A DNA stretch of 64,000 nt. Origin: Naegleria gruberi (Eukaryota). Position 1 is the first letter of the stretch. Every line of letters begins with the position of its first letter. This document shows, one piece after another, positions 1-61,282 of this stretch. Both the position numbers and the translations under genes were made by a program. The notes below the pieces were generated by a model, which had not been told where the DNA came from, did no database searches, and was given only the letters and a program-made list of their open reading frames with translations. The stretch is taken from NCBI GenBank assembly GCA_000004985.1, contig GG738916.1, one strand, 5' to 3'.

Positions 1-1729
1 GGTGGTAAATCAGCTACTAATCTTGTTAAGGATTTTGTAAAGATTAAATTGTCTACTCTGGATGTGGATAAGGCTACTTGCCAATCGGAGGTATTAATTT
101 CTGAACTTGATGGCTTTGCTCCAAGATTTGGTCATTCATTGGTGTTGGAAAAATCAGAAAATGGTAAAAGACTTTACTCCATTGGTGGTTGTAATAATAA
201 GGTTGACCATTTGGATTGTATCTATATTGATTTAAATAACATCAAGAATGGTTGGGATGTAACTTATACTCATTCTCTTTCCCACACTTTCAAAAGCAAA
301 GATGTTGGACCCGTATTTCATGCAAATGTTCCATTCCAAGTGATCAATGAAGATGATAGTATTGCTATGAATTACTTTGTATTTGGTGGTACTTATCAAA
401 AGACTGAGGATTCTAAAATTCAAGAGACCAGCCAACAAACAGATAAGATTGAAAAGAAGCAGAAAAAGAAACAAGCTGGTGAGCCATCATTTAATATTGA
501 AGTATTTGATAATGTGATGAATGATGACATTTTCAGATTGGTTCTCTCATTCATGACAATTTCAGATTTGTGTAAATTAGAGTTGGTCTCTAAGAAATTG
601 AGAATTTGCAAGCTCACCTCAGAGGATCAATACTGGAAGGATTATTACTATCAAAGGATTAATTTATATTTGGAAGCAAGCAAAACTTATAACTATAATT
701 ACAACAAGATAACTAGAGCTTATGAAACTAATTATCAATATTCTGAGATCTATACTTCATACCTCAAATTTACTAGCAACTATAAGAGACGTTTGATTGA
801 AGTTATTGGAGAATGCATGTCAAAAGCTGACAGAGATCACCACAAGAGAACCAGTTATATTGAAGGTTTGTCACAATGTGGAAGTGACATCTACGTTCCT
901 AAAGAAGAAATTCTCAAGTACAAGTTGAAAAATGCTTCAACAAGTGCTTTTAAAATTGTTCAAGTTGGTGAGTTGTCATTTATTTGAGAAAATACTTGAA
1001 TACTAATTAATCAATTGAAATTTCAAATAATAAGGTGATGGAGCTGTGGGTAAAACATGTCTTTGGATATCTCTAACCACCAACGCCTTTCCACATGAAT
1101 ATGTGCCAACCGTTTTTGATAATTACAGTCAAAATTATGTCTGTGATGGAACAACTTTCAGTCTTGGATTGTGGGATACTGCAGGACCAGAAGGTAAGTA
1201 ATTTTAAAATTGTATTTTGGATTGACCATTCAAAAGATTATGATAGGTAAGTTTAAGAAGAGTTATTAATTTTATAAATTATGCAACTAATGAAATATTA
1301 ACGGATTTAAACATATACAGATTACGTCCACTTTCCTATCCCCAAACTGATTTATTCTTTTTGAGTTTCAGTTGTAGTTCAGAATCATCTATGGATAATG
1401 TCGTTTCAAAATGGATTCCTGAAATAAGACATCATTGCCCAACTACTGCAGTTGCACTTGTTTGTACCAAGATTGATTTTAGAGATGATCCAGTCCTTAG
1501 TAGAGAATTACTTGTCAAAAAACATAAGAAGATTCATAGTTTTGAACAGGGAGAATTACTTGCCAAAAAGATGGGATGTCTCACTTACTTGGAAACAAGT
1601 GCTCTTACAGGTGCTGGAATTAAGGATCTGAACGAAGTGATGGTCAGATCCATCTCTATGTGGAATGATCCTTCATTCAAGCAAATTGTGAAAAAGAATC
1701 GTGAAAAGAAGAATTGTAACATGCAATAA
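1..1729 (+). CDS. Multi-domain protein, 5'-truncated at the window edge. The N-terminal part has a Kelch-like repeat and an F-box-like motif; the ORF is open from nt 1 to 987. It is spliced in frame to a C-terminal Rho/Rac-family GTPase domain. Proposed exons: 1..967, 1035..1193, 1237..1246 (10-nt micro-exon), 1321..1729.
   Basis: The ORF is open from position 1 in frame. It contains GG-doublet/W Kelch-like motifs and an F-box-like stretch, [38 protein letters not shown]. It ends ...AFKIVQVG directly at a GTGAGT donor. The 67-nt intron (968..1034) ends AG, and the next exon reads (G)[32 protein letters not shown]...[10 protein letters not shown], a canonical Rho P-loop and switch I. The 10-nt micro-exon ATTATGATAG joins to exon 4 and restores [15 protein letters not shown]. 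The Rho insert region and a C-terminal CNMQ CaaX box are present. The GTPase domain itself has confidence about 0.9; the fusion to the upstream ORF is inferred from phase-perfect splicing. Confidence 0.6.
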
Positions 1730-2358
1730 ATACATGATTTCTATTAGGATGTGACCACTTGGATTGGAATAAATCCATGACGATTGTCACAAACGAGCAT
1801 AGATATCTAAACAAGTTTAAAAGTCTTTTCTAACAGCAACAACTCTCTGGTTCTTGATTTTGAATAGTCCTCTTGATTGACAGCTTAATTACAATATTGG
1901 ATGAATCAATGAATTCAACTTTAATTCCTTTTAGAACCATACTCTTGATCATCATATATTTAAATTGTCCTTGCTGATGAATCAATTTCTGGTTCTTCCG
2001 AAAACAAAATCTTCTAACCAACAACCTCGTTTATTCCTTACTCAATTTCCTCATTTTTTATTCAATAAAAAAGCAATTAGAAAGGGCGCGGAATCTTTCC
2101 ATCCGTTAAGAAATTCCAAAGAAAATGTGAATACCAACGACCATTCTTTCTTCTTGCCTCGCAATGTACCATTTGGATACCATTAACTGGCCACTTATTA
2201 TTACAAATGTACAATTGCCTTCTCCGAATAATCAACAAGTAGATAGCAAACATTCAGGTGTGCTCTTCAATTATGACCATCTAAATTTACATCTTAATTG
2301 AAAAAAAACAGAACAACAAATTCTCCATCATTTTGAAGAAGAACAGATTATTGATTGT

Positions 2359-4512
2359 ATGGCAAATAGTAATAACGATAGTGATAAAAACAAGACGACA
2401 ACTAAAACAACAGAAAGTCCGAATGGTAATGCTACAAGTCCAAGGATAAAGCAATCTTCTTTGAGTAACATCAATTCGGATGCTACTGGAAAGGAAGAAC
2501 TTCATGTAAGCTTTAACTTGAGTAATATTTCGAGTACGAGTACGAATGGTTTTGGTAATGGTAGTAGGGAGAATTCATTTAGAATTGTTAAACCAAATCA
2601 AAGACTAGGTGATGGCAATGAGGAAATCATTGAATTGGCAGATGCAGTAATATTGCAAAATGATGAGGAAGAATTAATGATTGACGAATCGAGTCCTGAG
2701 AATAGAAATTCAATGGAATGGTCTGGTAGTTTGGCAGAAGATGGCGAACAAGCAGAATTGTTTCGAGAATTGAAACAAGACAGAAAAGAAAGAAAGAATC
2801 AAGAACAGTGGAAATGGTTGTGGAACATGATTAAGGAAACTGTCACTGTATTTCTTCCTTTGGGATTGACAACTTTTGTTGGTGGTATTCAAATAGTATG
2901 TAGTAGAAAGAAAACAATTCATTGTAACAAGTTAAAATAGGTTCAAAAGAAATTTGTAGATAAGAAGAAATGGTTGACTGAGGCAGAATTTATGGAGATT
3001 TATGCTCTTTCTCAAAGCTTACCTGGTGCCATTATTAGTCAAGTAGTATTTTCGATAGCCATGTTAAGACATGGTTTTTGGTCTGGCTTTTTAGCCAATC
3101 TACTCTTTTGTGGACCTGGTTTTATTGCCAATTTGCTTTTTGGTTGGCTGATGGCTGACATTAGTATTGATGATAACTCGCCGAGATGGGTTCTCAACTT
3201 GCAAAACGGTTTGGCTTGTTCAGGTATTGCATTTGCTGTGAGCTCAGCGTTCAGAATGGCCTCAATGTTAAATAAGAGCAAAAGTAGAGCATTTTCATTT
3301 ATATTGGCAGGATTTGTTGCCATGTTGACAATGGTTGCCAAACCAATGTGGATCTTACCAATTCTCATATTTGGAGGTGCTTTTGTTAGTTACTTCTTCT
3401 CCCTCATTTATGATCGTATTATGAGCAGAATAGACAAGTATGAAATTAGAAAGCAAGCTGCTCAAAAGAAGGATAACGAAGAAGACGAGGAAGAAACCTC
3501 GCTGACCATCAAACAAAAGATTATCTTTGTTTACTTATTCTTCAAGAGCTTTTTCAAAAAGCTTCCTGTTGAACCAGCTCAACAAGATAACCAAGAACCT
3601 CAAGCAGAAACCCAAACAGTAGTGGAAGAAACTCAAGAGAAACGAAAACCAAAGGACAAGTTTTCTAAAAATGTTAGAACTCACTCACCTCTTTGGTTGG
3701 GCATTTCCATGCTTTTGATTTTTGCTCTATTATTTGTTGTTTTGATTGTTACCTCAGTAATTTTCGAAACTTACAAAAAGCCAACCATAACAAATGGAGT
3801 AGATGTGTTTAAGGAGACTATAATTATGTCTAATTTTTTCTACAAGTACGGAACATTGATTTTTGGAGGTGGAGTTGGAGGTATTCCTCTTTTGAGAAAT
3901 GAAATGGTTGAACGAAAGTGGGTAACCGAGCAACAGTTCATGAATGGCTTTTCAATTTCTAATGCCCTCGTTGGTCCAAAGCATAGTGTTGCAGCATTCT
4001 ATGGTGCCTGTATTGGTGCCAAGTTTGCTGAAGCATTAGTAAATAGTGGCTCCAATAGAACTATCAATGGAACATATCTGAATGAAACTCTCATTTTTGG
4101 AAATGAAACAAACTCAAACAACTTTACTAATCCGAATCAAATACGTGTGAAACAACGTTCCAGTGCTCTCTATTACATTTTACCGCCACTGTTAGGAGTA
4201 ATTGCAGGTTTACTTTTCCATTTACCTGGATATCTGACAATGGCAGGTTGCCTTCCATTGTGGAGAAAGATTAGAGAAAATAATGTAATCAAATTATCAT
4301 TAATAGGTGTTAATGCAGTTTGTGTAGGATTTGTAGTTTCCAATTCAATCTCTATGTGGATAGACAATGTTGGAACCAGTTCATATCTGGCTGCTGCCAC
4401 AATATTTTGCTTCTTAATGAACTTTTTTGATTTTTCTCCTCCAATAATTGTGATAGCTGGTGCTATTTTATCCATTGTAGCAGGTGAAATTGGCTTTGCA
4501 GTAGGTTGGTAA
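2359..4512 (+). CDS. Chromate ion transporter (CHR/ChrA family), two exons (2359..2895 and 2941..4512), with an N/S/T-rich N-terminal extension
   Basis: Exon 1 ends ...LGLTTFVGGIQI at a GTATGT donor. The 45-nt intron ends AG. Exon 2 continues GFKRNLVDKKKWLTEAEFMEIYALSQSLPGAIISQ... and later LIFGGGVGGIPLLRNEMVERKWVTEQQFMNGFSISNALVGPKH. This is the duplicated ChrA half-domain signature. The protein has many transmembrane segments. Confidence 0.75.
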
Positions 4513-4773: not shown

Positions 4774-7700
4774 ATGTTCTCTAACAAAGATAATGATCCC
4801 TTGGCTGTGATCGATAGACTTTTACCTCGTTCATCAGGTTCTAGAAGTTTGTCCTATCTAAATAGTCAAGAGGAATTTAATTCTAATTTTGATGTTTTAA
4901 TTTCACCACCTCGTTTATCCAACACTATTCGTGAGAAAACCATCGGAAGCAATACTCTCCAATTATTTGATGAGACTACCTCGTATTATGAACTCTTCCC
5001 AATTATTGAAAATAAGAGAAAGAAGAATACATCTGATGATTTATTAAAATTTGGTATTACTTGGGAAAGTTTTGTTAAACCAAAGATTAGCTTTAAGAAT
5101 GCTAATCAACACAACAAGGATTTTGATCGTAGAATTGAAGAACAAAACGGAAAGAATTTGTTAGAAAAGTTTTTAACCATGTTGCAAGAACAATTGAGAT
5201 TGGATCAAATTTCATCCAACAAGTATGGTGTTGCTAGTGGACTTTCTAAACAACAAGTTGCTTGTTTGATTGCTAAACAACTTTATATTGCTAAGAGAAA
5301 GTTTAAAAACACTTTATCTGTTAAGAGTGTTTTCAAAGATTTACAAAATATGGGTATTGGCTTGTCACTTGATCCAAAGACACAAAAGTTGGAACAAATT
5401 GTCAAGGAAGTTCACATTTTGAAAGTTTTGGAACATTTGGAAAAGTTAATGGATTGGATTGACAGATATGCCAAACCAAACTTGGCAGAAGAAGAAGCCA
5501 AAAGATATGGTAAAGTTGAAAGACTTATTATCGGAACTGGTGAATCAAAGAATACTAATACATACTTTTCCACTGGTACAGAAAAAGATAATGATGAATA
5601 TGATGATGAAGCTCTAGTAATTGATGAAAATATTGAATTTGGTTCTGCTGATGATATTACTAATGCAGACCATTTGCATAATCAATTTAGAAATATTAGT
5701 ATCTTCTCTAGATCCCAATTGGAAAATGTTTTAGACCAAACTAATCTATTCTCCTTCACTGCACCAACAGAAAATGTTGAAGAAGAGGAGGAAGAAGAAG
5801 AAGAATCTGTTCTTTCTTCCATGTATACTGTTGATTGGTTGGAAAAGGAAGCCAGAAAGATTTGCAAGACACCAGGTATTGAAAATATTGTTTTGGATAT
5901 TTTACAAAAGAAGGGACAAGATGCTGTTCAATTACAATCTCGCTTATTCGATGCTCTTGGAGAAAATGCTTTCGAATTAATGTCAATTATCATGGAACAT
6001 AAGTCAGAAATTTTGGCTGATTTGTATAGAATGCAAATGGCAGATAATGCTGTTGAAGGTATTAACTCATTCTCTCATGTAAAGATGACAACATCCAAGT
6101 TCAAGGATGCTCAAAAGAAGCTCAAGAAGGAAGGTAGAAAAATTGGTAGAAAGAATCAAACCAAGTTTAACCTTTCAGGAGGAAACTCTGAAAATGAGTT
6201 GAATGAACTCAAATCACTCTATCAAACCTTCAAGAAGGAAAAGGATAGAAATGTTCTCAAGGCTGGTGAAGGAGAATCTAGAGTACTTGTTCTCGGAAGA
6301 GATGTTATTCCAGAGTCCAATAATGAGGCTGATAAAGAAACTCAAGAAAGAGTTATCAGACAACCAACTTATGAAGAACACGTCTTCCCTGCTCCAAAGA
6401 AACGTGAAGATAACACACCACTTGTTCCAATTTCTATATTTGAAGATTGGGCTCAACTTGCATTCAAAGGTTATACTCACCTCAATCGTGTACAATCTGA
6501 TGTTTTCTATTCTGCTTATAAAACTAGTGAAAACATGTTGGTTTGTGCTCCAACAGGTTGCGGTAAGACAAATATTGCAATGATGACAGTTTTGAGAGAA
6601 ATTGGCCAACACTTTAAGGGAGGAAAGATTAGACGTGAAGAATTCAAGATTATCTATATTGCTCCAATGAAAGCTTTGGCAGCTGAAATGGTTGAAAACT
6701 TCTCCAAGAGACTTGCACCACTTGGCATTACAGTAAAAGAAATGACTGGTGATATGCAATTGACAAAGAGAGAAGTACAACAAACTCAAATGATTGTTAC
6801 TACTCCTGAAAAGTGGGACGTAACAACCAGAAAAGCCTCTGATCAAGCTTTAATTCAATTGACTAGATTGATCATTATTGACGAAGTTCACTTGTTGAAT
6901 GAAGACAGAGGTCCAGTTATTGAATCTATTGTTGCTAGAACTTTAAGACAAGTTGAAACAACACAAAGTATGATTCGTTTGGTTGGTTTATCTGCTACTT
7001 TACCAAATTATATGGATGTTGCTAACTTCCTCAGAGTTGATCCTCATTCCGGATTGCACTTCTTTGATGGATCCTATAGACCTGTTCCACTTGAACAAAG
7101 TTTTATTGGTGTCAGTATTAGAAATCCAATTGCTAGAAATAAGGAATACAATCAAATTGCCTTCAATAGAACCTTGAAGAATTTGAAGAGAGAAAAACAA
7201 GTCATGGTTTTCGTTCACTCCAGAAAGGAAACTTCCACTACTGCCAAAGCTTTAATTGATTTGGCAGTTGAAGAAAATGCTCTTGATATGCTCACTGCTG
7301 GAGTTAAAATGAGTGAACATACCAGAAAGTGGGTAACTAAATCATTAGAAAAGTGTCACAATAGAGAATTGAAAGAATTGGTACCAAAAGGTCTCGGTAT
7401 TCACCATGCTGGTTTAGTTAGATCAGACAGAAATCTTGTTGAAAAGCTCTTTTCTGAAGGTATTATTAGAGTTTTATGTTGTACCTCTACACTCGCTTGG
7501 GGTGTCAACTTGCCATCATATTGTTGTATTATTAAGGGTACCGAAGTTTATAATGCTGAAAAGAGTACCATGACTGAACTTGGAATGTTGGATATTATGC
7601 AAATTTTCGGTCGTGCTGGTAGACCTCAATTTGACGTTGAAGGTGAAGGTGTTATTATTACTAGTTATGAAGTTTTACCTCGTTACCTCAACTTGTTAAA

Positions 7701-10700
7701 GAGAAATTTACCAATCGAATCACAAATGACACAAGATTTGGCTAACCACTTGTGTGCTGAAATTGTTTTGGGTACAGTGTCCAATGTCAGAGAAGGTTGT
7801 TTATGGTTGAATTATACTTACCTCTTCTTGAGAATGAGACAAAACCCAATGAATTATGGTATTTTACCTGAGGAAGTCAAGCTCGATCCTTCATTGATTG
7901 GTATGAGAAAGAGTCTTATTGAAAAGGCCTGTAAGATGTTACAAGAAAGCAAGATGATTATCTACGACGAAAGAACTGGTGTTGTTTCTGCAACTGATTT
8001 GGGTCGTATCGCCTCTCACTTCTATATTCACTACGAAACAATTCAATTGTACAATGAAAAGCTCCATCCAAAGATGTCCGAATCTGATGTTCTCCACATA
8101 GTTGCTAGTGCCAGAGAGTTCAAGAATATCAAGGTTAGAGAAGATGAATCTGAAGAACTTGCTGAATTATCAGCCAATGCACCAGTTAAAGTTACAAAGG
8201 GACAAGATGAATTCACTGGAAAGGTAAATTTGTTGATTCAAAGTTACATTTCCCATGTTAAGATTAAGAATTCATCTCTCATTTCCGATTGTGCCTTTAT
8301 TATTCAGAGTGTTGGTAGAATTATTAGAGCAATCTTTGAAATTGCTATCAAGGAACGTTGGTCATCTTTAGTTGACAAACTTTTAACCTTGACAAAATGT
8401 ATGGAAAGAAGACAATGGGTATTTGAACATCCACTCAGACAAATGTCAAAGATTCCAACCTTTGCCTTGCAAAAACTTGAAAACAAGAATTTGACCCTCT
8501 CCAAATTAGTTGAATATGAAGAATCCGAGTTGGATCAAGTATTGAATGTTAGAGGAATGGGTAGAATTATTATGGAACATATTGATAGATTCCCTCACTT
8601 GGATTTGGAAGCTAACGTTCAACCAATTACAAGAAATGTTCTTCGTTTCCAAGTTAAAATCAGACCAAACTTTACTTGGGACAAGAAATTGCACGGAGAA
8701 ACAGAGCCTTGGTGGATTTGGGTTGAAGATGAAAACTCTGAATTCATCTATCACTCTGAGTACTTCTTGTTAAAGCATGATGAATATGAAAAGATGATGA
8801 AAGAATCAAGAGATGACGAAGAAGGACCATGCTATTCTCTCAACTTTGTTGTTCCTTTCAGAGAAGATCCAAGACCTCTCTATTTTATTATTAGAGCAGT
8901 TTCTGACAAGTGGATTAGTGCAGAAGCACAAATTACCGTCAATATTAAGGATATTATTTTACCAGAAGGTTTTGCTCCAAGCACTCCAATTCTCCCATTG
9001 GATCCTCTTCCAATCACCTGCTTGAACAATCCTGAATATGAAAAGTTATATGCTGATAAGGGTATCAAATATTTCAACCCTGTACAAACACAAATTTTCC
9101 ACATGACATACCATACTGATGAAAATATTCTTATTGGTGCACCAACAGGTTCTGGTAAGACACTTGCTGCTGAATTGTGTATCTTTAGATTGTTCAATAC
9201 TAAACCAAATCAAAAGGTTATTTATATTGCTCCTCTTAAGGCCCTTGTTAGAGAAAGACTTGTTGAATGGGAAAAGAAGTTTGTTCAAAAGTTAGGCAAG
9301 AAAATGGTCGAATTAACTGGTGATTTCACTCCTGATGTTAAATTATTGAAGGAAGCTGATATTGTTATTACAACTCCTGAAAAGTGGGACGGTATTTCTC
9401 GTAACTGGCAAAATCGTTCCTATGTCAGAGATGTTGGTTTGATTGTCATGGACGAAATTCACTTGCTTGGCAGTGGAAGAGGTGCTATTTTAGAAGTCAT
9501 TACATCTCGTATGAGATATATTTCTTGGAACACTCAAACTCACATTCGTTTGATGGGTCTCAGTACGAACATGGCTAATGCTACTGACTTGGCCGATTGG
9601 TTGGGTGTTGGACAAAGAGGTTTGTTCAACTTTAAGAGTTCTGTAAGACCTGTTCCTTTACAAATTAGTATTTCTGGATTCAGTGGTAAGAACTATTGTC
9701 CAAGAATGAATTCTATGAATAAGCCAGCTTATCAAGCAATTTTGAGACACTCCAACAACAAACCTTGTTTGATTTTCGTTTCTTCCAGAAGACAAACCAG
9801 ATTGACAGCAATGGATTTGATTGGTTATTGTTCTGCTGATGAAAATCCTCACAGATTCTTGAGAATGGACCAAAATGAAGTTATTAGTGCTTTGGAACTT
9901 GCTCGTGACACTCACCTCAAACAATTCTTACAATATGGTATTGGTATTCACCATGCTGGTCTTACTCCATCAGACAAAAAACTCGTTGAAGAACTTTTCC
10001 ACTCTGGTAAGATTCAAGTCCTTGTTGCTACTAGTACTTTGGCTTGGGGTGTCAACTTGCCAGCATACTTTGTCATTATCAAAGGTACTGAATTTTTTGA
10101 ACCATCCACAAAGAGATATGAAGATTATCCACTTGTTGATGTATTACAGATGGCTGGTCGTTCTGGTCGTCCAGGTTTCGATACTGAAGGTAGAGTTTTC
10201 ATCATGGTTCACGATATTAAGAAGAATTTCTACAAGAGATTCCTCTATGAACCATTCCCAATTGAATCAAGTTTGCATACTCAATTGCATGACCACATCA
10301 ATGCGGAAATTGTTTCAGGAACTATCAAGACCAAACAAGATTGTTTGGACTATTTAACTTGGACTTTCATGTTCCGTCGTCTTGTCCAAAATCCATGCTA
10401 TTATGGTATTGAAGATTTGTCCTATGAAGGATTGAACAAGTGGTTATCTACTAAGATTACCAGTATTATTGATGACTTGGAATATGCTGGACTTGTTAAA
10501 GCTATTGATTTGAATCTTGATAAGAAGAAACGTTGGGAAGTTATGGCTTCTCAAACACAATCATCAACCTTTGGTACTATGACAGCTGAGAAGGAAAAGG
10601 CTGAAAAGGAAATCCAAAAGGCCAAGGGAATTTATTTGGAACCAACAGCAACTGGTATTATTGCCAGTTTCTATTATTTGTCATATAGAACTGCTTCTCA

Positions 10701-11661
10701 TTTCAACAGACTCATCAAGGCTGATTCTAACGTTAACTACTTGTTAGAACTTCTCTGTGAAGCTAAGGAATTTGCTGAAATCCCTGTCAGACATAATGAA
10801 GACAAGTTGAATAAGGAATTGAGTGAAGTTGTTCCTCTTGGAGTTTACATGCACGACTATGAATCTCCACACATTAAGTGTTATTTACTTTTACAAGCTC
10901 ACTTTGAAAGAGTCAAGCTTCCAATTGTCGACTACATTACTGATACTAGAACAATTTTAGATTCTACCATCCGTATTTCTCAATCCTATATTGATATCTG
11001 TGCCGAAAAGGGATACTTGCAACCAACAATTAACATGATGCACATTTTGCAAATGATCATGCAAGCCAGATGGGCAACAGATTCAACCCTCTATCAATTG
11101 TTCAGTAATTTGCAATGTCCACGTGAAAATACTGAAAGTTCTTCAGAAGATATTCACAACTTTATTCAAAACTTAGCTCAAAAGGAAAATGTCACTGGTC
11201 TCAAGCAATTGTTGGATGTTAAATATCAACAAGGCGAGTCTGCTTTGCAAAAATTGATTTCCAAATATTTGAGAAAGAACAACTTAGTATCCAATCTCAT
11301 GAAGATTGTTGAAGAATTCCCATATTTAACTGTAAAGATTGACAAGGTTACTCACGATGAAGAAGATCACCAACTTGAAGTTTCTGTCAACATTGAAAGA
11401 TTAAGCAAACCAAAAGAACAAGCTTACACACCAATGTATACCAAACAAAAGGATGAAGGATTCTGGTTGATTGTTTCTAACCCTCAAAACAATGAATTAT
11501 TAGCTCTCAAGAGAGTAAGAGCAAACAGAAAATTCAATCGTACTGAAGTTTATCTTCCAGTCTCTGAAAATGATAAGGAATTGGAAGCTATTGTTGTTCC
11601 TGATTGCTATCTTGGTTTAGATGTTTCTTCTAAATTCTTGTGTAAGATTCAAACTAAATAA
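4774..11661 (+). CDS. ASCC3: ASCC3/Slh1-type Ski2-like DExH RNA helicase with two helicase-Sec63 cassettes (ribosome quality-control RQT helicase family), single exon, 2295 aa
   Basis: First cassette: [42 protein letters not shown]. Second cassette: [51 protein letters not shown]. Long conserved blocks match my recall of ASCC3 ([76 protein letters not shown]). The assignment to ASCC3 rather than the closely related Brr2 rests on my recall of the second-cassette motifs. Confidence 0.85.
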   Translation: [2295 protein letters not shown]

Positions 11662-12167: not shown

Positions 12168-12238
12168 TGCGTCGACCGGGAATTGAACCCGGGTCACGGC
12201 GATGGCAACGCCGTATTCTACCACTAAACCATCGACGC
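12168..12238 (-). tRNA. tRNA-Gly (anticodon GCC)
   Basis: The minus-strand sequence is GCGTCGATGGTTTAGTGGTAGAATACGGCGTTGCCATCGCCGTGACCCGGGTTCAATTCCCGGTCGACGCA. The acceptor stem is 7 bp. The A box TGGTTTAGTGG and B box GGTTCAATTCC are present. The anticodon loop is TTGCCAT. The T-stem CCGGG/CCCGG is intact. A T-run terminator follows. Confidence 0.85.
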
Positions 12239-17944: not shown

Positions 17945-18528
17945 AGAAAATCATTAGTTATTCATTAACAACATTTTATGATAGATATCAAGAAGCGTCG
18001 ATGGTTTAGTGGTAGAATACGGCGTTGCCATCGCCGTGAATAGGGTTCAATTCCCGGTCGACGCATAAATTATTTTCCATTTCAACATTCTTTCATTTTC
18101 TCTTTTTCAACTTTATACCACTAAAACTAGACATTTATTACTATCTCTACTCCAAAAATCACATCTTTAAAATCAATATTCATCGAGAAAGAAACCTCGG
18201 TTTTTACCCCATTTTTTCTTTCATTTTATTAAAAGATAAATTTGGTGAACTTTGTAAAACTCAAAAAAAATGTCTGAAATCGATAAACAACCAAACCTTC
18301 AATCAAAAACTTCTACCCATCCTCTTTTTGCATTCCTTCGTGATTATTCCATCATAGGTGGTGCTCATCTCTGCTCTGTAACTTTCACTGCTCCTCTACA
18401 TAGAGCAATAGATGTTATTACAAATTTCGAGAAAGATCACAATATTCTGGAATAATCAATTGTATTACTGAGGTTGTAAAGAACGAAGGTATTTCGTTTC
18501 TGTGGAGAGGAAACGTTACATATTGTTT
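17945..18528. repeat. Right arm of the inverted duplication, about 585 bp. It contains the second tRNA-Gly and the functional-looking 5' end of the carrier gene.
   Basis: See the left-arm entry. This arm carries the extra 76-nt block. Confidence 0.8.
17995..18065 (+). tRNA. tRNA-Gly (GCC), second copy with an altered T-stem
   Basis: Identical to the left copy except in the variable region and 5' T-stem: GTGAATAGGG in place of GTGACCCGGG. This introduces an A.G mismatch and a U.G pair in the T-stem. The A and B boxes are intact. A T-run lies downstream. Confidence 0.7.
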
Positions 18529-45210: not shown

Positions 45211-46049
45211 TTTTTATTGGTAGAAGAATCTAATAATTTACCACAGCAGTTTATTGAACTTGGTATTGCTCCTGTGTAATCCAATATGCTTCTATCATAC
45301 TCATAAATGCAAAAATTGAGCAATGTTAGTAAATTTATTTACTAACATCCCGAAGAATATTCTATTGTTATTAGAGCGAGGAAACACACTAGGTACTTCC
45401 TCACGTATCAAAAATTTTGAAGGAGGGCAATAGCCAATGGCAATTGACCATATACAGGACAGCTTTTCAGAGTGCAAGGAAAAGCGTCGACTGCATAACT
45501 TTCCAACCTTCTTGATCATTGGAAAGTCCTTCAAGGTAAGTATGAAGATTTAAGAGAGGCAGTAAGACCATCCTTAAATTGTCCCTCAAAACCTCAACTG
45601 TTGGCTATATAAAATTATGGTCCATTATTTTTAAAAATATTTCTTATTACAATTTTGAAGCTATGGATTGGAAAAATAATCGCAGATCTATGTTTGTGTT
45701 AAGCCCGATAAATCAACAATATATTCATGTTGGTATTCTGTATATTCAAAGATTCAAGTAATTCTAACATTCTTTTAAAAAATGTGTTTGTAAACAATTT
45801 CCTATGTCAATATGTGTCGAACGTAATTGAAAAAATTGAAGTTCCAACCTACGGTGCAGTTTTTAGTGTGGGAATTTGCAGATAATGTTGATGTTGCCTC
45901 TTGTGATGACATTTTTTAATTAATGGCAGGAAAGAACTGTAGACTAATCCTCAAATCAATTATTCATTGCTCAGTAGTATAATAGATTGTAACAGTTAAC
46001 CTTAAATTGTCCTTGAAAACCTAAACAAATGCAAATAGACAAACATAAA

Positions 46050-46822: not shown

Positions 46823-47980
46823 TTACTGTTCGTCATGATCTGCAAATTTCCAAATGTAAATAGTAAGTGTGGCAGCTGCTACTGCTAAAATTACACCCCA
46901 AATAGCCAAAGACTGATTGATGAGAGAATCGTTTGCTGGTGGTTTCCATTCTTCTTGTTTTTTGTTTTTCTTTCGTTTGTTAGAGAGAAGAGGTTGTCCA
47001 ATTGTCATGGCATTGGTCATCTTTGGAGGAATTTGATTCTTCTTTGGAAGTGGTTGACTTGGTTCAATATTAAATCCAAGAGCTTGTAAAATTGGTGAGA
47101 GAGGAGATCTAGGTGAGTGAACTGGAGAGGAGAAGGTAGCTGATTGTGGTGAGAGAGGGCTTGGATAGTTCTTGAGATATTCATCATTGAGAAGTTGTTC
47201 TTTGGTCTTTTCTAGATCGTCTTCTGAGCTTTCTTCATCTGAAATTTCCAAATTGGACAGCAGGGTTGAATCATCATTGGTGAGTTCACTAATTCTATCC
47301 TTTGAAGTGATGTGAACTGTGCACAGTTTATCATAGCAGGAGATTAAATTCATAAAATTAGGTTTTGGCACTTGGAATGGAATATTTCTGATTGGTAGAC
47401 TCTTTAGGTCCATTTCGTTCCACAATAATTGTTCAATCATATCTCTATTAATGTTACCAGGACAATAGACGAATGAGCAGTAAACTTTTTGTTGACCTTC
47501 TCCATCAAAATATTTCTTCCAAGTTTCAGTTAATAATTCGGTCAACTTTTCCTGGAATTTCACCTCTTGATTTCTTCTAATTTCACTACCGGCAGATTTT
47601 GCCTTATGTCCAGTTTGAATGTCGTGTTGTAATTGTCTTCCTCCTTGCTTCTTTCTAGATACATAATTCGAAAAAGTCTTGTGAACTATTGCCTTCCCTA
47701 AGGATGGATCAAAAATTGCTCCAGAAAAGTGTCCACCATGCATAATACACACAAAAATCAAATCACTCTTTGATTGAGGCAGCATGAATTTATATTCCTC
47801 CTGATTAAACCACGCATTCCAAAAAGTTAAATATTTATCATCATCAATTTCCAATCCGAACAATCCAGGAATTTGATTTAAATTCTTTTCAATCTTTTTC
47901 AATGGTTCTTGTTGAAAGAGGGCCACAATTTCCTCCTGATTAATTTTATATTTTCCCACTTTATGTTCCATCATCATCAA
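46823..47980 (-). CDS. VLRF1 (Vms1/ANKZF1-like peptidyl-tRNA hydrolase) domain protein with a C-terminal transmembrane helix, 385 aa
   Basis: IFVCIMHGGHFSGAIFD. Then SRKKQGGRQLQHD, which has the position and spacing of the Vms1 catalytic GxQ loop. A C-terminal hydrophobic helix, AIWGVILAVAAATLTIYIW. I see no ankyrin repeats and no VIM. Confidence 0.5.
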   Translation of the reverse strand: MMMMEHKVGKYKINQEEIVALFQQEPLKKIEKNLNQIPGLFGLEIDDDKYLTFWNAWFNQEEYKFMLPQSKSDLIFVCIMHGGHFSGAIFDPSLGKAIVHKTFSNYVSRKKQGGRQLQHDIQTGHKAKSAGSEIRRNQEVKFQEKLTELLTETWKKYFDGEGQQKVYCSFVYCPGNINRDMIEQLLWNEMDLKSLPIRNIPFQVPKPNFMNLISCYDKLCTVHITSKDRISELTNDDSTLLSNLEISDEESSEDDLEKTKEQLLNDEYLKNYPSPLSPQSATFSSPVHSPRSPLSPILQALGFNIEPSQPLPKKNQIPPKMTNAMTIGQPLLSNKRKKNKKQEEWKPPANDSLINQSLAIWGVILAVAAATLTIYIWKFADHDEQ

Positions 47981-53567: not shown

Positions 53568-55320
53568 ATGCTTTCTTTTTTACGCAAGGCTTTGACACAC
53601 AACAATAACAATAATAATAACAATAAGAATAACAATACTGATAACAATAATAATAATAATAGTGATAACAATCATTTTATTCCTAATGATATTTTAATAA
53701 TAATATTTCAATTTCTTAATCAACAAGATTATATAAAAATATCATTTGTTTGTAGATATTGGAGATTTGTTGTTCAACAACCATTCCGAAAGGAATTTAC
53801 AAATTTTATTTTAAACTCTTCATATTCAATAGTTTATTGTACATTTATTATTAATGCATTTGAGTTTTTTAAATTCTTTTCTTCCATAACATTATAACAC
53901 TGTACCTGAATCAACATTTAAAACTCTGCTTTCTTCAATGAAATTACAAAGTTTATTTATTGATTCTTGTGTTGTTAAAAATAATATACCATTCAATTCT
54001 GTAAAACAATCTAATATAACTGAATTAGGATTAAATTGTAAAATGAAAAAGAAAGATTTACGTGCTTTATTTATTGTAATTCCAAATTTGAAACATTTAA
54101 GTTTAGGAATGGTAGTAACCGAATGTTTAATTAACACAGAATCATTTCTGAGTACACATTGTCATAAATTAGAAACACTCCATTTACAATTATTACCTGA
54201 AAATCAAAAAAAAATTGTAAAATTATTACATGGAATATTTAATCCATCAACAACAATATCCAATCTCATTGATATTAGAATATTTGTAACAGATAATAAT
54301 CCAACAAGTAATAGAAAATTAAATAATTTTACATTTAATTTTAATTCATTTCCAAATTTAAAATATTTATTTCTTGATATTACCTATATTTATACATTAG
54401 AATCAATTAGTAATGTATTAAATTCAAATAATATTTCAAAATTACAAGAATTTGGATTTGGAACTATTAGAAAAGCTATTGAAAAATTACAATTTAATTC
54501 GAGTGAAAATTTACAAAATTTAAAAAAATTATTTTTAAATAGAACAGAAATGATGACAAATATTGATAATCTTCCTTCATTAGAATTATTATATATAGAT
54601 GAATATGCAAAAAAACATTATTCCGCTACAAAATATTCAAAACCATGGAATTTAGCATCTAATGTGAAAATGCCATCTCTAAAATATTTACATTTAAATC
54701 TTTTTAATGAAACTCATTTACCTGATCGATTAAATGTGGAACCATTTAAAAATATTAAATATTTTTATTTTGAATCTGAATATAATATTGATTTATCAGA
54801 ATTGAGTAAATTAAATTTAGAAATATTAATTCTTAAAATTTCTGAAGAATATAATAAGAATATACTTCATCACATTTCTAAAATATCAACATTGAGAGAT
54901 TTAACATTTAGTAATCCTATTAGTGAAATTGATTTGAAATTACTTTGTAAATTACCAAATTTAGAATATCTGAATATTAGATTGGAATTTTATAGTGAAA
55001 CATCTTTTACTTTTAATTCACTAACTACACTCTCAATTCATTCAAAAAATTTGAAAGGATTAAATTTCTTTCAAATATCAAATTTACCAAAATTTAAAAC
55101 TTTACTAATTCGTAATCCTTATGATAATAACTATACATGGTGGTTGCAACCATTATTTCCAAATTTACAAATAATTAAAGCAAGTACTGACAGTTTTGGA
55201 ATATTTTTAACATCTCAATATAATGATGATATGAATTTTGGTGAGTATGAAGTTTCACAAAGAGCAGCAAATCATTTCCAAAATGAAAACGTATGGCTCT
55301 TTCCAAAAAAATTTATTTAA
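53568..55320 (+). pseudogene. F-box/LRR gene, copy A of a tandem pair. It is disrupted by a small deletion that creates a stop after codon 109; the ORF resumes at 53938.
   Basis: About 95% identical to copy B (59373..61145). Near 53880, copy A reads ttataacactg where copy B reads ttatttttccataatactg. This gives a TAA in frame. The poly-N tract at the N-terminus differs in length between the copies. Confidence 0.55.
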
Positions 55321-56031
55321 TATTAAAGCTCTGTATCAGAGGTTTCTCCTTGGTCACAGTTGATTTTTTAGAAGGATCTCCTTCAGCCAATATCTTTGGT
55401 TTCAAATGGTGAATTCAAGCAAGCCAATGCTGAGAAGGCCAAAGTTGACAATGATTATGTTTGTAAACATTTCAAATCCTATTTTTCAAAAAATTCAAAT
55501 AAAAAGTTGGTACATCATCATAGTTGTTATTTATCATCATTATAAAAGCCTCTTGGATGGTTCAAGAGATGCTGAATTCAAATGTTATAGAGATTGAACA
55601 GAATATTGTTGTACATTATATTTATTGTACCCAAGAAGGAACTTTTGGAATAAAGGACAGTTCCTTCAAGTTTACCAATTCAAATGCCTTTCATTTGGAA
55701 TAAGCCAAGCTCCCAGGAACTCACCAAGATTATGAAAAAACTGGTAACCAAGTGGAGACAACAAGGTATTATTTTGTTCCTAAAATTCAGAAAGAAAAGG
55801 GTGTCTTTACTCCCTGACTCAAACTGAAGCAATTTAGACTTCAAACGTAATATTTCCATCATTTGCAAGCCTAAGAACTGAAAAAGGATAAGGAATTGCT
55901 TTAGTGTTGAGAAATGAAGGAGAATTTTGTGAAGAATTAAGACAGGCCAAAATTAAATCCTTACAAGTCTGATTTCTAACTTGGAAAATTTATTTATTTA
56001 TTGATTGGCCCATGGTTTTACCTCATTTCCA

Positions 56032-58504
56032 TTATTTTCTGTTTACTCTCAACCAATAATCGATAATAACTTTCAAGAAATTATTGCATGGTATATTTTC
56101 TTGACAAGATAATTGGATTTTTTGTAAATAATCAAGAGTTAAATTATTTGAGCAAAATATCTTGAAATACTCAACTAGCTCTCTACAATCATTATTATTT
56201 TGTGAAACTGAAGCTAAATTTAGTAATATAATAAATTCAGTATCATTAATGGAATATAATTTTTCAACAATCAAGATACAGACATGTTTAACAATCCATG
56301 TAATATCCAATTGTTGTGCAATGATTAAAATACCAACCAAATCATTCAATTTAAGGTAATTGAACTCATATCCATAACATAATTTACATATGATTTGTAA
56401 TATTGTATTAATTTTAGCTGAATTATTGAACAAATCAATAATCCAATGATCTGATACCATCATTTCAATGAATTCATACAAGTCAACCACATTATTTTCA
56501 TTATTTTTAAATAGAATATTTAAAACTGAACTATGAACGGATAGAATTGATTTATGTAATTGCAATAATTCATTTTTATCCTTATTAATAATTACATGAA
56601 TATCACTATTACTTTCATCATTATATAATAATTTTAATGATTCAGTTACATTTTTGGCAATATTTTCAAGATTATCAATTTTATAATTAATTTGTTTAAA
56701 TGGTTGTTTAACATTATTAATTTTATCTTGAATAATTTCGAATAATGGATCTGATTTCAATAAAGTTGCATTTTCTTTAATAAATGCAAGACACTTATTT
56801 GCCAACAATAGCAAAATACTATTTTTAGCTTGTTTTAAAATATTTAAAGAAAGATAATTATTAACTATTCGTAAAATCCTCATAATGTTATCTACATTCA
56901 TTCTATTTGAAATGTCATTAAATAACAATAATTTAATTTCATGCTTGATATCATTAATATCATTTAATATAAATAGACAAGTTACTAAATTTAATTCTAA
57001 TTCTCCAAATGAAATGAAATTAATAAATTTATCATAATTACTAAATAAATCATCTATATTTAAACAATTTAAATCAATAATTGCGTTTTTAATTAAATAA
57101 TATAAAACTTTTTGGTCATTCTCATTTAAATGTTCAATTATATCATTTTTAATTAAATTATAAAAATCATTTGAAATATTTTTTAATAAATTTAAATCTA
57201 AATAAAAATTAGAATTAATTTCATAATTGAACTTAAAATTATCAGTTACCATAATATCATTAATCTTGAGACTATTCTCATTATCTGTTTCATGAATAAA
57301 AATAGTAAAATTTTTACCACAACAAATTTGAATTTCATCACCTTCCTTAATAGTAAATGGTAATTCAATTAATTTTAGTTCATTGGCTGATTTATTAGCA
57401 TATCCTAATTCGCCAAATTCATTAGATCCAAATGAATAGAACTTTTGGTCTACTGTTTGCAAAACACTGTGGAAGGTACCACTTTCCATATTAATAATAT
57501 TATCCATATTTGCTTGTTTAGAATTATAGTCAATATATTTGCATTCATTATTATATAACGATAAAATTTGATATTCATTCAATATTAATTGATCATAATT
57601 TTTCTCAAATTTAAACTCATTATAATTATTATGTAATTTAATTACTTTTTTAGGATTGTAATAATCTGCCAAGCCATAATCAATTAAAGTATAATCTAGA
57701 ATTTACAATAGAAGAATCATTAAAAATAATGAAACTAGTTCTTCCATTACATTTAATATCCTTAATATCTTCAATATTCTTATTAACTAATTTGGTAACA
57801 TTCATAAAATTATTTAAGGTAAAATAATCTTCAACATGTAATTTACCATTTACAATACTTTCAATTACAAATGGTTGGAATGATTGTGAATATTCATTCA
57901 TTCCACAAACATACAATTCATTTTCAAATGTTGTGAAAAATGTCAAATGAAATGTTACAAATATTTTGTTTACTTTTAACTTTTCTAAATTTGTATTTTG
58001 TAATAAATTAACGGCTACATCATTTGATTTTTTAGCAATGATAGCCAATTGTCCATGTTCATTATTACCAATACCAAATATGGAATTTAATTTAGATAAA
58101 AATACAACATGTTCTTTACCAATCGCAAAATCAATAATTTTGTCACTAGTATTTAAATTATTAAATTTAATCAATGTAGGAATATTAGAAATATTATTAA
58201 TAAATGAACAATTTCCCATTTTGTAAACATATCCCTTACGCGTAAGAAATATGCACAATTGATCTTGACTTTTAAATTTAATAATCTTATCATTAATTAA
58301 ATAATTTTGTAAATAATCAATTTTATCAAAACATGTATCATTTAATTTTGTAACAGTAATAATATCACTTTGTTTCTTCCAGAATCCATCTCCGCATCCG
58401 TAAACAAATTGTGATTTAGAAGAATTAATACCGAAAGCAGTGTTATTAGGTTCTGTTTCGTCGTCCACTACTTGATCAACATGGTGAATGGTGAATTGAT
58501 TCAT
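56032..58504 (-). CDS. RCC1-like repeat plus BTB/POZ domain protein. It is split into two ORFs (58504..57680 and 57672..56032) by a stop or frameshift. Coding is extremely AT-rich.
   Basis: RCC1-type blades: YGCGDGFW, FGIGNNEHGQLA, FGSNEFGELGY. A C-terminal BTB-like block: DLYEFIEMMVSDHWIIDLFNNSAKINTILQIICKLCYGYEF...LIIAQQLDI. The two ORFs are 7 nt apart and in different frames. Confidence 0.55.
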
Positions 58505-59372
58505 TTTTTTTTATAGAGTGGTCTCTCGGTTGTTATTGATACAAGAGACATTAATAAACTTGTACACCTTTTATTTTGTTATAGATTGTTACAACAAATA
58601 TTGTGCTTACTCAGCATTGCATTCATTGGTTTTGTCTAGCTAGATCGGCGGAAATGAAATCTCATTCGTGTGATTGATGTGAGAGATGTTACGCGCCAAA
58701 ATTTCTACACCAAAAAATAAGCAAAGCCACTTTTTCGAACTCTTATTTGAAAATCCATTAAGGAAATTAAACTCTCAGTACTTTCAAGAAATACCTCTAC
58801 TCATCATCATTGGTATTTAATTCAATCAACATAAATCAGCATCAATTTGGAATATTTCAATTAGAGTAGCTGGGATACATCTCACCAAAAGTAATAAGAG
58901 CAATATTGTGTGATGGTGTTTCTTCTTGGAATGAAGAAAGTTGCCAACCTCGGAAATATCAAACATTATCATTAAGCTGTAATTCAACATCACATTATAT
59001 TTATTTTTATATTAATAGTAATACTTGTTCATTAGGAATTTCTTCAACTAATTAATATATTTTCATCATGAATTCCAAAAACATTGTATGATTATTAGGG
59101 ATGTCTAATCTAATATCACCATCAAGAGAGTTGGATTATTTGTATTCATCGAGTTGTGGAATTTTACTTCATCATACCTTATCATCAGCAAGCTCACTTC
59201 AGATCATTAAGGTAAATATCTTAATGGTCATCATCAACCAGTTGCAGATTAAAACTGTGATTTAATGTCTCAATTAAGTTGATTGCTATGTTTGGAAAAT
59301 ACACGAACGATTCAATATTTCAATTTTTAAAAAGGAAGGAAGATTCTTCATGACTTTCAAAAAATTAAAAAA

Positions 59373-61145
59373 ATGCTTTCTTTTTTGCACAAGGCTTTGA
59401 CACACAACAATAACAAGAATAACAATAATAATACTAATAATACTAATAACAATACTGATAACAATAATAATAGTGATAACAATAATTTTATTCCCAATGA
59501 TATTTTAATAATAATATTTCAATTTCTCAATCAACAAGATTATATAAAAATATCATTTGTTTGTAGATATTGGAGATTTGTTGTTCAACAACCATTCCGA
59601 AAGGAATTTACAAATTATATTTTAAACTCTTCATATTCAATAGTTTATTGTACATTTATTATTAATGCATTTGAGTTTTTTAAATTCTTTTCTTCCATAA
59701 CATTATTTTTCCATAATACTGTACCTGAATCAACATTTAAAGCTCTACTTTCTTCAATGAAATTACAAAGTTTATTTATTGATTCTTGTGTTGCTAAAAA
59801 TAATATACCATTCAATTCTATAAAACAATCTAATATAACTGAATTAGGATTAAATTGTAAAATGAAAAAGAAAGATTTACGTGCTTTATTTATTGCACTT
59901 CCAAATTTGAAACATTTAAGTTTAGGAACGGTAGTAACAGAATGTTTAATTAGCACGGAATTATTTCTGAGTACACATTGTCATAAATTAGAAACACTCC
60001 ATTTACAATTATTACCTGAAAATCAAAAAAAAATTGTAAAATTATTAAATGGAATATTTAATCCATCAACAACAACAATATCCAATCTCATTGATATTAG
60101 AATATTTGTAAAAGAATATTATACAACAAGTAATAGAAAATTACATAATTTTACATTTAATTTTAATTCATTTCCAAATTTAAAATATTTATTTCTTGAT
60201 ATTACCTATATTTATACATTAGAATCAATTAGCAATGTATTAAATTCAAATAATATTTCAAAATTACAAGAATTTGGATTTGGAACTATTAGAAAAGCTA
60301 TTGAAAAATTACAATTTAATTCGAGTGAAAATTTACAAAATTTAAAAAAATTATTTTTAAATAGAACAGAAATGATGACAAATATTGATAATCTTCCTTC
60401 ATTAGAATTATTATATATAGATGAATATGCAAAAAAACATTATTCCGCTACAAAATATTCAAAACCATGGAATTTAGCATCTAATGTGAAAATGCCATCT
60501 CTAAAATATTTACATTTAAATCTTTTTAATGAAACTCATTTACCTGATCGATTAAATGTGGAATCATTTAAAAATATTAAATATTTTTATTTTGAATCAG
60601 AATATAATATTGATTTATCAGAATTGAGTAAATTAAATTTAGAAATATTAATTCTTAACATTTCTTTAAAATATAATAAGAATATATTTCATCACATTTC
60701 TAAAATATCAACATTGAGAGATTTAACATTTAGTAATCCTATTAGTGAAATTGATTTGAAATTACTTTGTAAATTACCAAATTTAGAATATCTTTATATT
60801 ACATTGGAATTTTATAGTGAAACATTTTTTACTTTTAATTCACTAACTACACTTTCAATTCATTCAGATAATTTGAAAGAATTAAATTTCTTTCAAATAT
60901 CAAATTTACCAAAATTGAAAACTTTACTAATTCGTAATCCTTTTGATAATAACCATACATGGTGGTTGCAACAATTGTTTCCAAATTTACAAATAATTAA
61001 TGCAAGTACTAACAGTATAGGAATATTTTCAACATCATCTCAATATAATGATGGTATGAATTTTGGTGAGTATGAAGTTTCACAAAGAGCAGCAAATTAT
61101 TTACAAAATGAATATGTATGGCTCTTTCCAAAAAAATTTATTTAA
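59373..61145 (+). CDS. F-box/LRR protein, intact copy B of the tandem pair, 590 aa
   Basis: F-box: IPNDILIIIFQFLNQQDYIKISFVCRYWRFVVQQPF. L-rich repeats follow (LKHLSLG, LETLHLQ, LKYLFLD, LEYLYITLEF). The N-terminus is poly-N. Confidence 0.7.
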   Translation: MLSFLHKALTHNNNKNNNNNTNNTNNNTDNNNNSDNNNFIPNDILIIIFQFLNQQDYIKISFVCRYWRFVVQQPFRKEFTNYILNSSYSIVYCTFIINAFEFFKFFSSITLFFHNTVPESTFKALLSSMKLQSLFIDSCVAKNNIPFNSIKQSNITELGLNCKMKKKDLRALFIALPNLKHLSLGTVVTECLISTELFLSTHCHKLETLHLQLLPENQKKIVKLLNGIFNPSTTTISNLIDIRIFVKEYYTTSNRKLHNFTFNFNSFPNLKYLFLDITYIYTLESISNVLNSNNISKLQEFGFGTIRKAIEKLQFNSSENLQNLKKLFLNRTEMMTNIDNLPSLELLYIDEYAKKHYSATKYSKPWNLASNVKMPSLKYLHLNLFNETHLPDRLNVESFKNIKYFYFESEYNIDLSELSKLNLEILILNISLKYNKNIFHHISKISTLRDLTFSNPISEIDLKLLCKLPNLEYLYITLEFYSETFFTFNSLTTLSIHSDNLKELNFFQISNLPKLKTLLIRNPFDNNHTWWLQQLFPNLQIINASTNSIGIFSTSSQYNDGMNFGEYEVSQRAANYLQNEYVWLFPKKFI

Positions 61146-61282
61146 CATTAAAGCTCTGTATCAGAAGTTTCTCCTTGGTCAAATCTGAATAGTGAATTCA
61201 AGTAAGGCCAAAGTTGACAATGTTCAATGAATAATGTTTGTAAACATTTCAAATCCTATTTTCAAAAAATTCAAATAAAAAA

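Follow-up and report, generated by a model that had tools for sequence, protein, structure and literature searches.

Exons of only a few bases that are stably kept within conserved domains have so far been documented mostly in plants and animals. A protist example would be provided by a 10-nucleotide (nt) exon at positions 1237 to 1246 of a 64,000-nt stretch of DNA from Naegleria gruberi (contig GG738916.1 of GenBank assembly GCA_000004985.1), which was analysed over its full length and is called the window throughout. The exon lies in the Rac-like GTPase domain of a gene that also encodes Kelch and F-box regions. The neuronal microexons of animals, which measure 3-27 nt, are alternative, usually have a length that is a multiple of three, and are found between long introns under the control of tissue-specific splicing factors. 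The window exon is likewise very short, contributes only a few surface residues and would need strong or specialised splice signals. Unlike the neuronal microexons, it has a length, 10 nt, at which skipping disrupts the frame; its flanking introns are very short, and its use looks constitutive.

A second parallel is found in the ultra-short (15 nt or less) constitutive micro-exons of plants, which likewise place a few bases inside conserved domain-coding sequence and are conserved along with the positions of their flanking introns, as the window exon is (Yu et al. 2022, PMC8831610). Such exons are often absent from automatic annotation, the consequences being shifted frames, small deletions, or neighbouring exons that are wrongly extended (PMC8831610). 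In contrast to the plant cases, the exon described here belongs to a heterolobosean protist with few introns overall, its flanking introns are in the range of 42-74 nt, and it is known from sequence alone. At the level of protein architecture rather than of the micro-exon, the nearest comparison is with RhoBTB-type proteins, in which a Rho-family domain is likewise fused to a module that recruits cullin-type ubiquitin ligases. RhoBTB proteins carry tandem C-terminal BTB domains, whereas the window protein has N-terminal Kelch and F-box regions and keeps a CaaX-like end.

The gene lies at the start of the window and has the following parts, with a slash marking each splice boundary:

1..1729, + strand: the gene, which begins upstream of the window and so lacks its 5' end here; with the 10-mer included, the length of the coding sequence is divisible by three and no stop codon interrupts it
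1..967, + strand: exon 1, incomplete at its 5' end because the window starts within it; open in frame 0, ending ...FKIVQV plus the first base of a Gly codon
1..967, + strand: content of exon 1, namely the F-box region and a linker, preceded by the final Kelch repeats and followed by the beginning of the GTPase domain
968..1034, + strand: intron 1, 67 nt, GTGAGT...TAAG, phase 1 in the Gly codon of VG/DGAVGKT
1035..1193, + strand: exon 2, 159 nt, reading to ...WDTAGPE plus the first base (G) of the Asp63 codon (...GGA CCA GAA G)
1194..1236, + strand: intron 2, 43 nt, aag/GTAAGTAA...TTGACCATTCAAAAG (GTAAGT...AAAAG), phase 1 in the Asp63 codon
1198..1203, + strand: rival donor GTAATT, made by the +5/+6 positions of the 1194 donor and found by path enumeration
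1237..1246, + strand: micro-exon, 10 nt, ATTATGATAG, with AG at 1235-1236 before it and GTAAGT at 1247-1252 after it
1247..1320, + strand: intron 3, 74 nt, tag/GTAAGTTT...ATATACAG (GTAAGT...TACAG), phase 2 in the Arg66 codon
1321..1729, + strand: exon 4, starting A TTA CGT CCA CTT TCC TAT and encoding the remainder of the GTPase domain, then a polybasic tail and the C-terminus CNMQ; the stop codon is TAA at 1727-1729

We put at about nine in ten the probability that 1237-1246 is a coding exon included in the main messenger RNA (mRNA) of this N. gruberi Kelch, F-box and Rac-like gene. The micro-exon path is preferred because of homology, the low probability of a chance occurrence, pairing of the donors with U1 small nuclear RNA (snRNA), and an identical exon in a paralogue, which is referred to as L003. 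A first-pass annotation had placed the end of exon 2 after GPE plus one G and the 10-mer between AG and GTAAGT, and these coordinates are correct. The junction reads GAA G/AT TAT GAT AG/A TTA CGT and thus E-D-Y-D-R-L-R, with ATTATGATAG supplying Asp63, Tyr64, Asp65 and two bases of Arg66 of switch II (Rac1 numbering). Splicing 1193/1237..1246/1321 leaves the frame open through to the stop at 1727-1729, while a direct 1193-to-1321 junction puts translation out of frame and leads to a stop after 13 codons, and retention of both introns gives an immediate stop. The same annotation held that the 10-mer restores the Rho sequence EDYDRLRPLSY, which is borne out by the spliced product: its alignment to human Rac1 is gapless across the junction (E value 4e-63).

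To compare the splice paths, all combinations of GT or GC donors with AG acceptors giving one or two introns between 1100 and 1450 were enumerated under the condition that the frame stays open, which left 558 paths. The micro-exon path ranks first of these against human Rac1 with a score of 524, and the others reach at most 490. The enumeration also contains one canonical single-intron path that does without the 10-mer and stays in frame, a 123-nt intron from GT at 1198 to the acceptor at 1320, so the earlier statement that the block at 1321 is out of frame unless the 10-mer is included does not hold. The product of this path reads GPE-GK-LRPLSY, with DYDR replaced by GK. An alternative of this kind arises for any micro-exon of length 3n+1 that is preceded by a GTAAGT donor. 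The paths can be told apart by the junctions that they predict, and their three products differ in length by 6 and 10 nt:

inclusion path, predicted junction strings: GGACCAGAAGATTATGATAGATTACGTCC, GAAGATTATGATAGATTACG, CTGCAGGACCAGAAGATTATGATAGATTACGTCCACTTTCC
inclusion path, product stretch over the micro-exon: GPEDYDRLRPLSY
GK path, predicted junction strings: GGACCAGAAGGTAAATTACGTCC, GAAGGTAAATTACG, CTGCAGGACCAGAAGGTAAATTACGTCCACTTTCC
exon-skip path, predicted junction strings: GGACCAGAAGATTACGTCC, CTGCAGGACCAGAAGATTACGTCCACTTTCC

If the single intron from 1198 (GTAATT) to 1320 were the one used, the 10-mer would merely be intronic sequence. This is very unlikely, even though the path is canonical GT-AG, stays in frame and produces exactly the GPEGKLRPLSY reading found in the RefSeq model XP_002677955.1 of a paralogue. 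The GK path drops four residues that are kept in Rac1 and in every other family member examined, and its product scores 122.1 bits with the Pfam Ras hidden Markov model compared to 135.8 bits with the micro-exon, a loss of 13.7 bits. It also leaves the arrangement AG-ATTATGATAG-GTAAGT as a coincidence, one that is repeated identically in a paralogue of 45% identity: the chance of finding AG, a frame-completing D-Y-D-R 10-mer and GT in a 127-nt stretch of the same composition is about 7e-6. The degenerate pattern AGAYTAYGAYAGGTRA is present in one copy in the 64 kb, where 0.04 would be expected. GTAAGT itself is scarce: about 21 copies would be expected on the window's + strand and only 5 are present, of which two serve as the donors at 1194 and 1247 and one more is a U1 snRNA gene read in antisense.

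This U1 gene allows the donors to be compared with the 5' end of an snRNA from the same window:

45376-45543, - strand: gene for the U1 spliceosomal snRNA (Rfam RF00003, 70.4 bits, gathering score 69.5)

The 5' end of the RNA is AUACUUACCUUG. Its position 11 is U where G is usual, a change that would favour donors with A at exon position -3. When ranked among the 2851 GT sites of the + strand, the donor at 1194 (aag/GUAAGUA) forms 10 contiguous base pairs with this U1 at -12.7 kcal/mol and is in the top 0.07%, and the donor at 1247 (uag/GUAAGU) forms 8 contiguous base pairs at -10.0 kcal/mol and is in the top 0.5%. By contrast, U1 pairs weakly with the rival donor at 1198 (-4.0 kcal/mol, top 18%), and this donor overlaps the site at 1194, the strongest of the window. 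It also does not have G at position +5, which is present in 22 of the 24 introns sampled from the gene family. In this sample, intron lengths range from 39 to 140 nt and the donors are nearly always GTAAGT; the window introns of 43 and 74 nt are typical of it.

Introns 2 and 3 are U2-type GT-AG introns, each complete in itself. As a candidate branch point, intron 1 offers CTAAT at 29 nt from the 3' splice site, and intron 3 offers CTAAT and TTAAC at 31 and 20 nt (loose matches to YTRAY); several introns of the family have no YTRAY match at all. A small RNA was also looked for in the introns, and no Rfam match was found there.

The following mechanism would fit these signals. Two short U2-type introns interrupt the switch II coding sequence, and the 10 bases between them would give D-Y-D and part of R. 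From what is known of splicing in general, each short intron would be recognised alone as a unit (intron definition), and introns 2 and 3 would probably be removed one after the other rather than together, because an exon of 10 nt is too short for the 3' splice-site complex and the U1 small nuclear ribonucleoprotein to be accommodated simultaneously. Loss of the exon would either break the frame or, via the weak donor at 1198, give a protein without DYDR. It is conceivable that the exon is in addition a regulated cassette, with inclusion leading to active protein and skipping (1193 to 1321) leading to mRNA decay or to a Kelch/F-box protein without a working GTPase. This would add to the explanation given here and not replace it. 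Skipping does yield an early stop, 13 codons on, very short exons are hard to splice, and the introns that flank plant micro-exons tend to be detained and spliced late (PMC8831610). However, both donors are among the strongest U1 matches of the window, which argues for efficient constitutive use, and regulation of this kind is considered unlikely. The use of the micro-exon looks constitutive.

Comparison with orthologous or related Rho genes for a conserved intron pair had been proposed in the first-pass annotation, and such a pair was found in L003, at the same phases and around an identical 10-nt exon. For the other family members, intron positions were obtained by mapping the annotated proteins back to their loci. 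The switch II regions compare as follows:

L003 (ENA metagenome contig ERZ929261 k127_519858): Kelch/F-box/Rac gene with 45% protein identity to the window gene
N. fowleri FDP41_007326 and N. lovaniensis C9374_001827: switch II intron at the Arg68 codon, no micro-exons
N. lovaniensis C9374_004444: introns at Asp65 (phase 1), Arg66 (phase 2) and Arg68 (phase 2), micro-exons of 4 and 6 nt
Willaertia magna, two genes: introns at Thr58 (phase 2) and between Glu62 and Asp63 (phase 0), micro-exon of 13 nt
N. lovaniensis C9374_009358: no switch II introns, no micro-exons

In L003, the 10-nt exon ATTATGATAG lies at 2130-2139 between AG and GTAATT, and the intron positions agree with those of the window: phase 1 in the Asp63 codon and phase 2 in the Arg66 codon. 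The sequences of the flanking introns have diverged, with the exon and the intron positions kept. The switch II region of L003 (2019-2236) is made up of three consecutive micro-exons, GGATACTGCTGGTCCTGAAG (20 nt), ATTATGATAG (10 nt) and ATTACGTCCATTG (13 nt), each bounded by AG and by GTAAGT or GTAATT and separated by introns of 42-48 nt, and splicing gives a complete protein of 715 amino acids with a CLVQ end. The window gene groups with the L003 gene in a rough neighbour-joining tree that carries no support values; the micro-exon would therefore predate their duplication.

The very short exons of the other relatives belong to the same family of Kelch, F-box and Rac-like proteins with DTAGPE, and they fall within the same 45-nt stretch. 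In N. lovaniensis C9374_004444 (PYSW02000021.1, 2468-2631) the annotated exons are ATCG (4 nt) and ATTAAG (6 nt), the introns measure 49-53 nt and all donors are GTAAGT; in W. magna the 13-nt exon is found in ABK040_012229 and ABK040_016655. The N. lovaniensis gene shares the phase-2 intron at Arg66 with the window gene and L003. Its other introns (D65 phase 1, R68 phase 2) and those of Willaertia (T58 phase 2, E62/D63 phase 0) differ from those of the window, so these are not the same exon, and the identical 10-nt exon is shared only with L003. The N. lovaniensis gene models were made by BRAKER1 with RNA-seq (PMC6125883), which is indirect support for their micro-exons.

Some points weigh against a constitutive micro-exon in the window gene. 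A canonical path that skips the exon and stays in frame does exist, and the automatic RefSeq model XP_002677955.1 takes the same route in a paralogue. The only candidate branch point of the 43-nt intron 2 is TTGAC, a weak match to YTRAY, 12 nt away from the 3' splice site. P0004 and P0005, the presumed relatives from N. fowleri and N. lovaniensis, lack an intron at Asp63, so that the 10-nt exon is not conserved across the genus Naegleria. Annotated micro-exons in other genomes are often without read support (PMC8831610). Since such annotations can be wrong, the models from N. lovaniensis and Willaertia count as support and not as proof.

The genomes of Naegleria and Willaertia otherwise average less than one intron per gene. 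Within the roughly 45 nt that encode switch II from W56 to S71, eight different intron positions are found among eight genes. The switch II stretch of heterolobosean Kelch, F-box and Rac-like genes may tentatively be regarded as a hotspot of intron gain or movement, with the odds for this falling slightly short of even. Joint Genome Institute (JGI) metagenome contigs were scanned for the micro-exon together with the donor before it, and for relatives of the Kelch/F-box part, with no usable matches, and in a literature search no paper was found that ties Naegleria to micro-exons of nuclear genes.

Consequences of such exons for annotation can be followed in the public records of the family. The RefSeq protein XP_002677955.1 (P0122, "rho family small GTPase", 203 amino acids) reads GPEGKLRPLSY at the junction. 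When the path that uses the GT at +5 is applied to L003 with a start at an internal Met, the result agrees with XP_002677955.1 throughout the junction and, in all, at 195 of 203 positions. The model starts at this internal Met, by which the Kelch/F-box part is lost; it keeps the neighbouring short exons, the 20-nt one lengthened to 24 nt and the 13-nt one, and skips the 10-nt exon. XP_002677955.1 thus looks like a model of the L003 gene's N. gruberi counterpart that was cut short and wrongly spliced, with the micro-exon missed, and by analogy it resembles the wrongly extended neighbouring exon known from plants. The expectation that the exon would be easily missed by gene finders is hereby supported by an example. 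An assignment of P0122 to XP_002672362.1* of Herman et al. was considered and rejected, as P0122 is XP_002677955.1, which does not appear in the accessible part of their Table S8. A second N. gruberi paralogue, XP_002681858.1 (P0057), is close to the window gene, and its last ~26 residues match the +1 frame reading of window positions 820-960; the model therefore jumps frame and ends before the GTPase domain. In the Table S8 that accompanies Herman et al. 2021 (PMC8296547), XP_002681858.1 is flagged as a putative pseudogene. The errors in both records are, by comparison, of the kinds described for plant micro-exons (PMC8831610).

The window gene itself has been curated before. A manually corrected N. 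gruberi model, XP_002670347.1*, is entered as "Rac" in Table S8 of Herman et al. (PMC8296547), with 'F-box' given for the same gene. Where this model and the window product overlap, 194 of 194 residues are identical, in a comparison that lies within the first 399 amino acids of the curated model, upstream of the GTPase domain. Very probably, the host gene is therefore the one whose model was repaired by hand by these authors. The full-length product, in either the DYDR or the GK form, had no exact match in a large protein collection, and among annotated proteins the nearest are those of Naegleria and Willaertia.

The encoded protein is not a plain Rho protein; it combines Kelch repeats, an F-box-like segment and an atypical Rac-like GTPase domain. 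The first-pass annotation of a Rho GTPase domain holds in that the domain is of the Rac type, and falls short in that it forms the C-terminal part of a Kelch and F-box protein and carries Pro61. A Ras-superfamily G domain is recognised by Pfam Ras at 133-136 bits, and the spliced product contains the P-loop GDGAVGKT, of the form GxxxxGK[ST], and the Rho-type switch II DTAGQEDYDRLRPLSY. The best relatives of solved structure are Rac1, Rac2 and Rac3, followed by Cdc42. Pfam F-box gives 17.7 bits for the truncated window product (E value 0.0034), which is under the cut-off of 20.5, and the Kelch match is weak too. The homologues have clear F-box and Kelch matches and are named 'F-box domain-containing protein', with P0011 carrying PF00646/PF12937. 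The C-terminus CNMQ follows a basic stretch (...KKNCNMQ) and resembles a prenylation (CaaX) box in its sequence, with Cys at -4 and an Asn that is not aliphatic at the first 'a' position; the paralogues end in CLVQ, CYLQ or CFLQ.

Instead of DTAGQE, the window protein has DTAGPE and so does not possess the catalytic Gln61 (Q61P). This replacement might be taken as a sign that the gene is a decaying pseudogene and that the interruption of switch II is damage, and the flagging of the close paralogue XP_002681858.1 (P0057) as a putative pseudogene in Table S8 (PMC8296547) points in the same direction. Yet Pro61 is common to most of the Kelch/F-box/Rac members examined (homologues P0004, P0005, P0011, P0069, P0077 and L003), and its presence in intact family members of three other species shows that it is a family trait and not damage. 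The proposed splicing also leaves the whole frame open from the window start to the CaaX-like end, and the window gene itself is not flagged in the part of the supplement of Herman et al. (PMC8296547) that is accessible. Decay of the gene is thus highly improbable. Conservation of Pro61 in Naegleria and Willaertia suggests instead that these proteins may be GTPase-deficient or atypically regulated Rho modules on SCF-type adaptors. Many fusions of F-box or BTB with GTPase domains are reported for Naegleria by Herman et al. 2021 (PMC8296547), who suggest GTPase-linked ubiquitination.

The feature is of an ordinary kind and the gene model has already been corrected by hand in a supplementary table, so that it matters chiefly for annotation. 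A model that omits the 10-nt exon is either truncated or short of four switch II residues, and the public records of the family contain errors of both kinds. A census or phylogeny of Naegleria Rho GTPases, and structural models of Kelch/F-box/Rac proteins, depend on the correct call of the micro-exon; Rho genes number roughly 80 in N. gruberi and 50 in N. fowleri. The most interesting lead is the clustering of still shorter exons in related genes: if these models are right, the family would be a natural test of the minimum exon size under intron definition and of the ordered, stepwise removal of introns.

As an origin of the micro-exon, a tandem duplication of the end of exon 2 together with intron 2 was considered and rejected, as the similarity, judged by eye, is limited to the GTAAGT consensus. 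A second Rho gene or a further copy of the motif was likewise rejected, with none found within the 64 kb.

Several other features of the window were recorded:

2341-4512, + strand: gene of the chromate-transporter family (Pfam PF02417)
4774-11661, + strand: a single open reading frame (ORF) of 2295 codons for a spliceosomal helicase of the Brr2/SNRNP200 type with two DEAD + Sec63 units, apparently intronless
12168-12238, - strand, and 17995-18065, + strand: two genes for transfer RNA-Gly(GCC), in opposite orientation and about 5.8 kb apart
46823-47980, - strand: ORF with a clear bVLRF1 match (PF18826, 113 bits)
54000-62000: stretch with a G+C content of 21-27%, compared to about 33% elsewhere

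The low-G+C stretch contains ORFs at 53938-55320, at 56032-57672 (- strand, with a weak RCC1-like match) and at 59373-61145 (F-box and leucine-rich repeats). The chromate-transporter gene has a putative short GTATGT...AG intron near 2896-2940, which probably joins an ATG-initiated 5' ORF to the ORF at 2974-4512. The bVLRF1 match at 46823-47980 is to a release-factor-like domain that is named after Bacteroidetes and is found here in a eukaryote.

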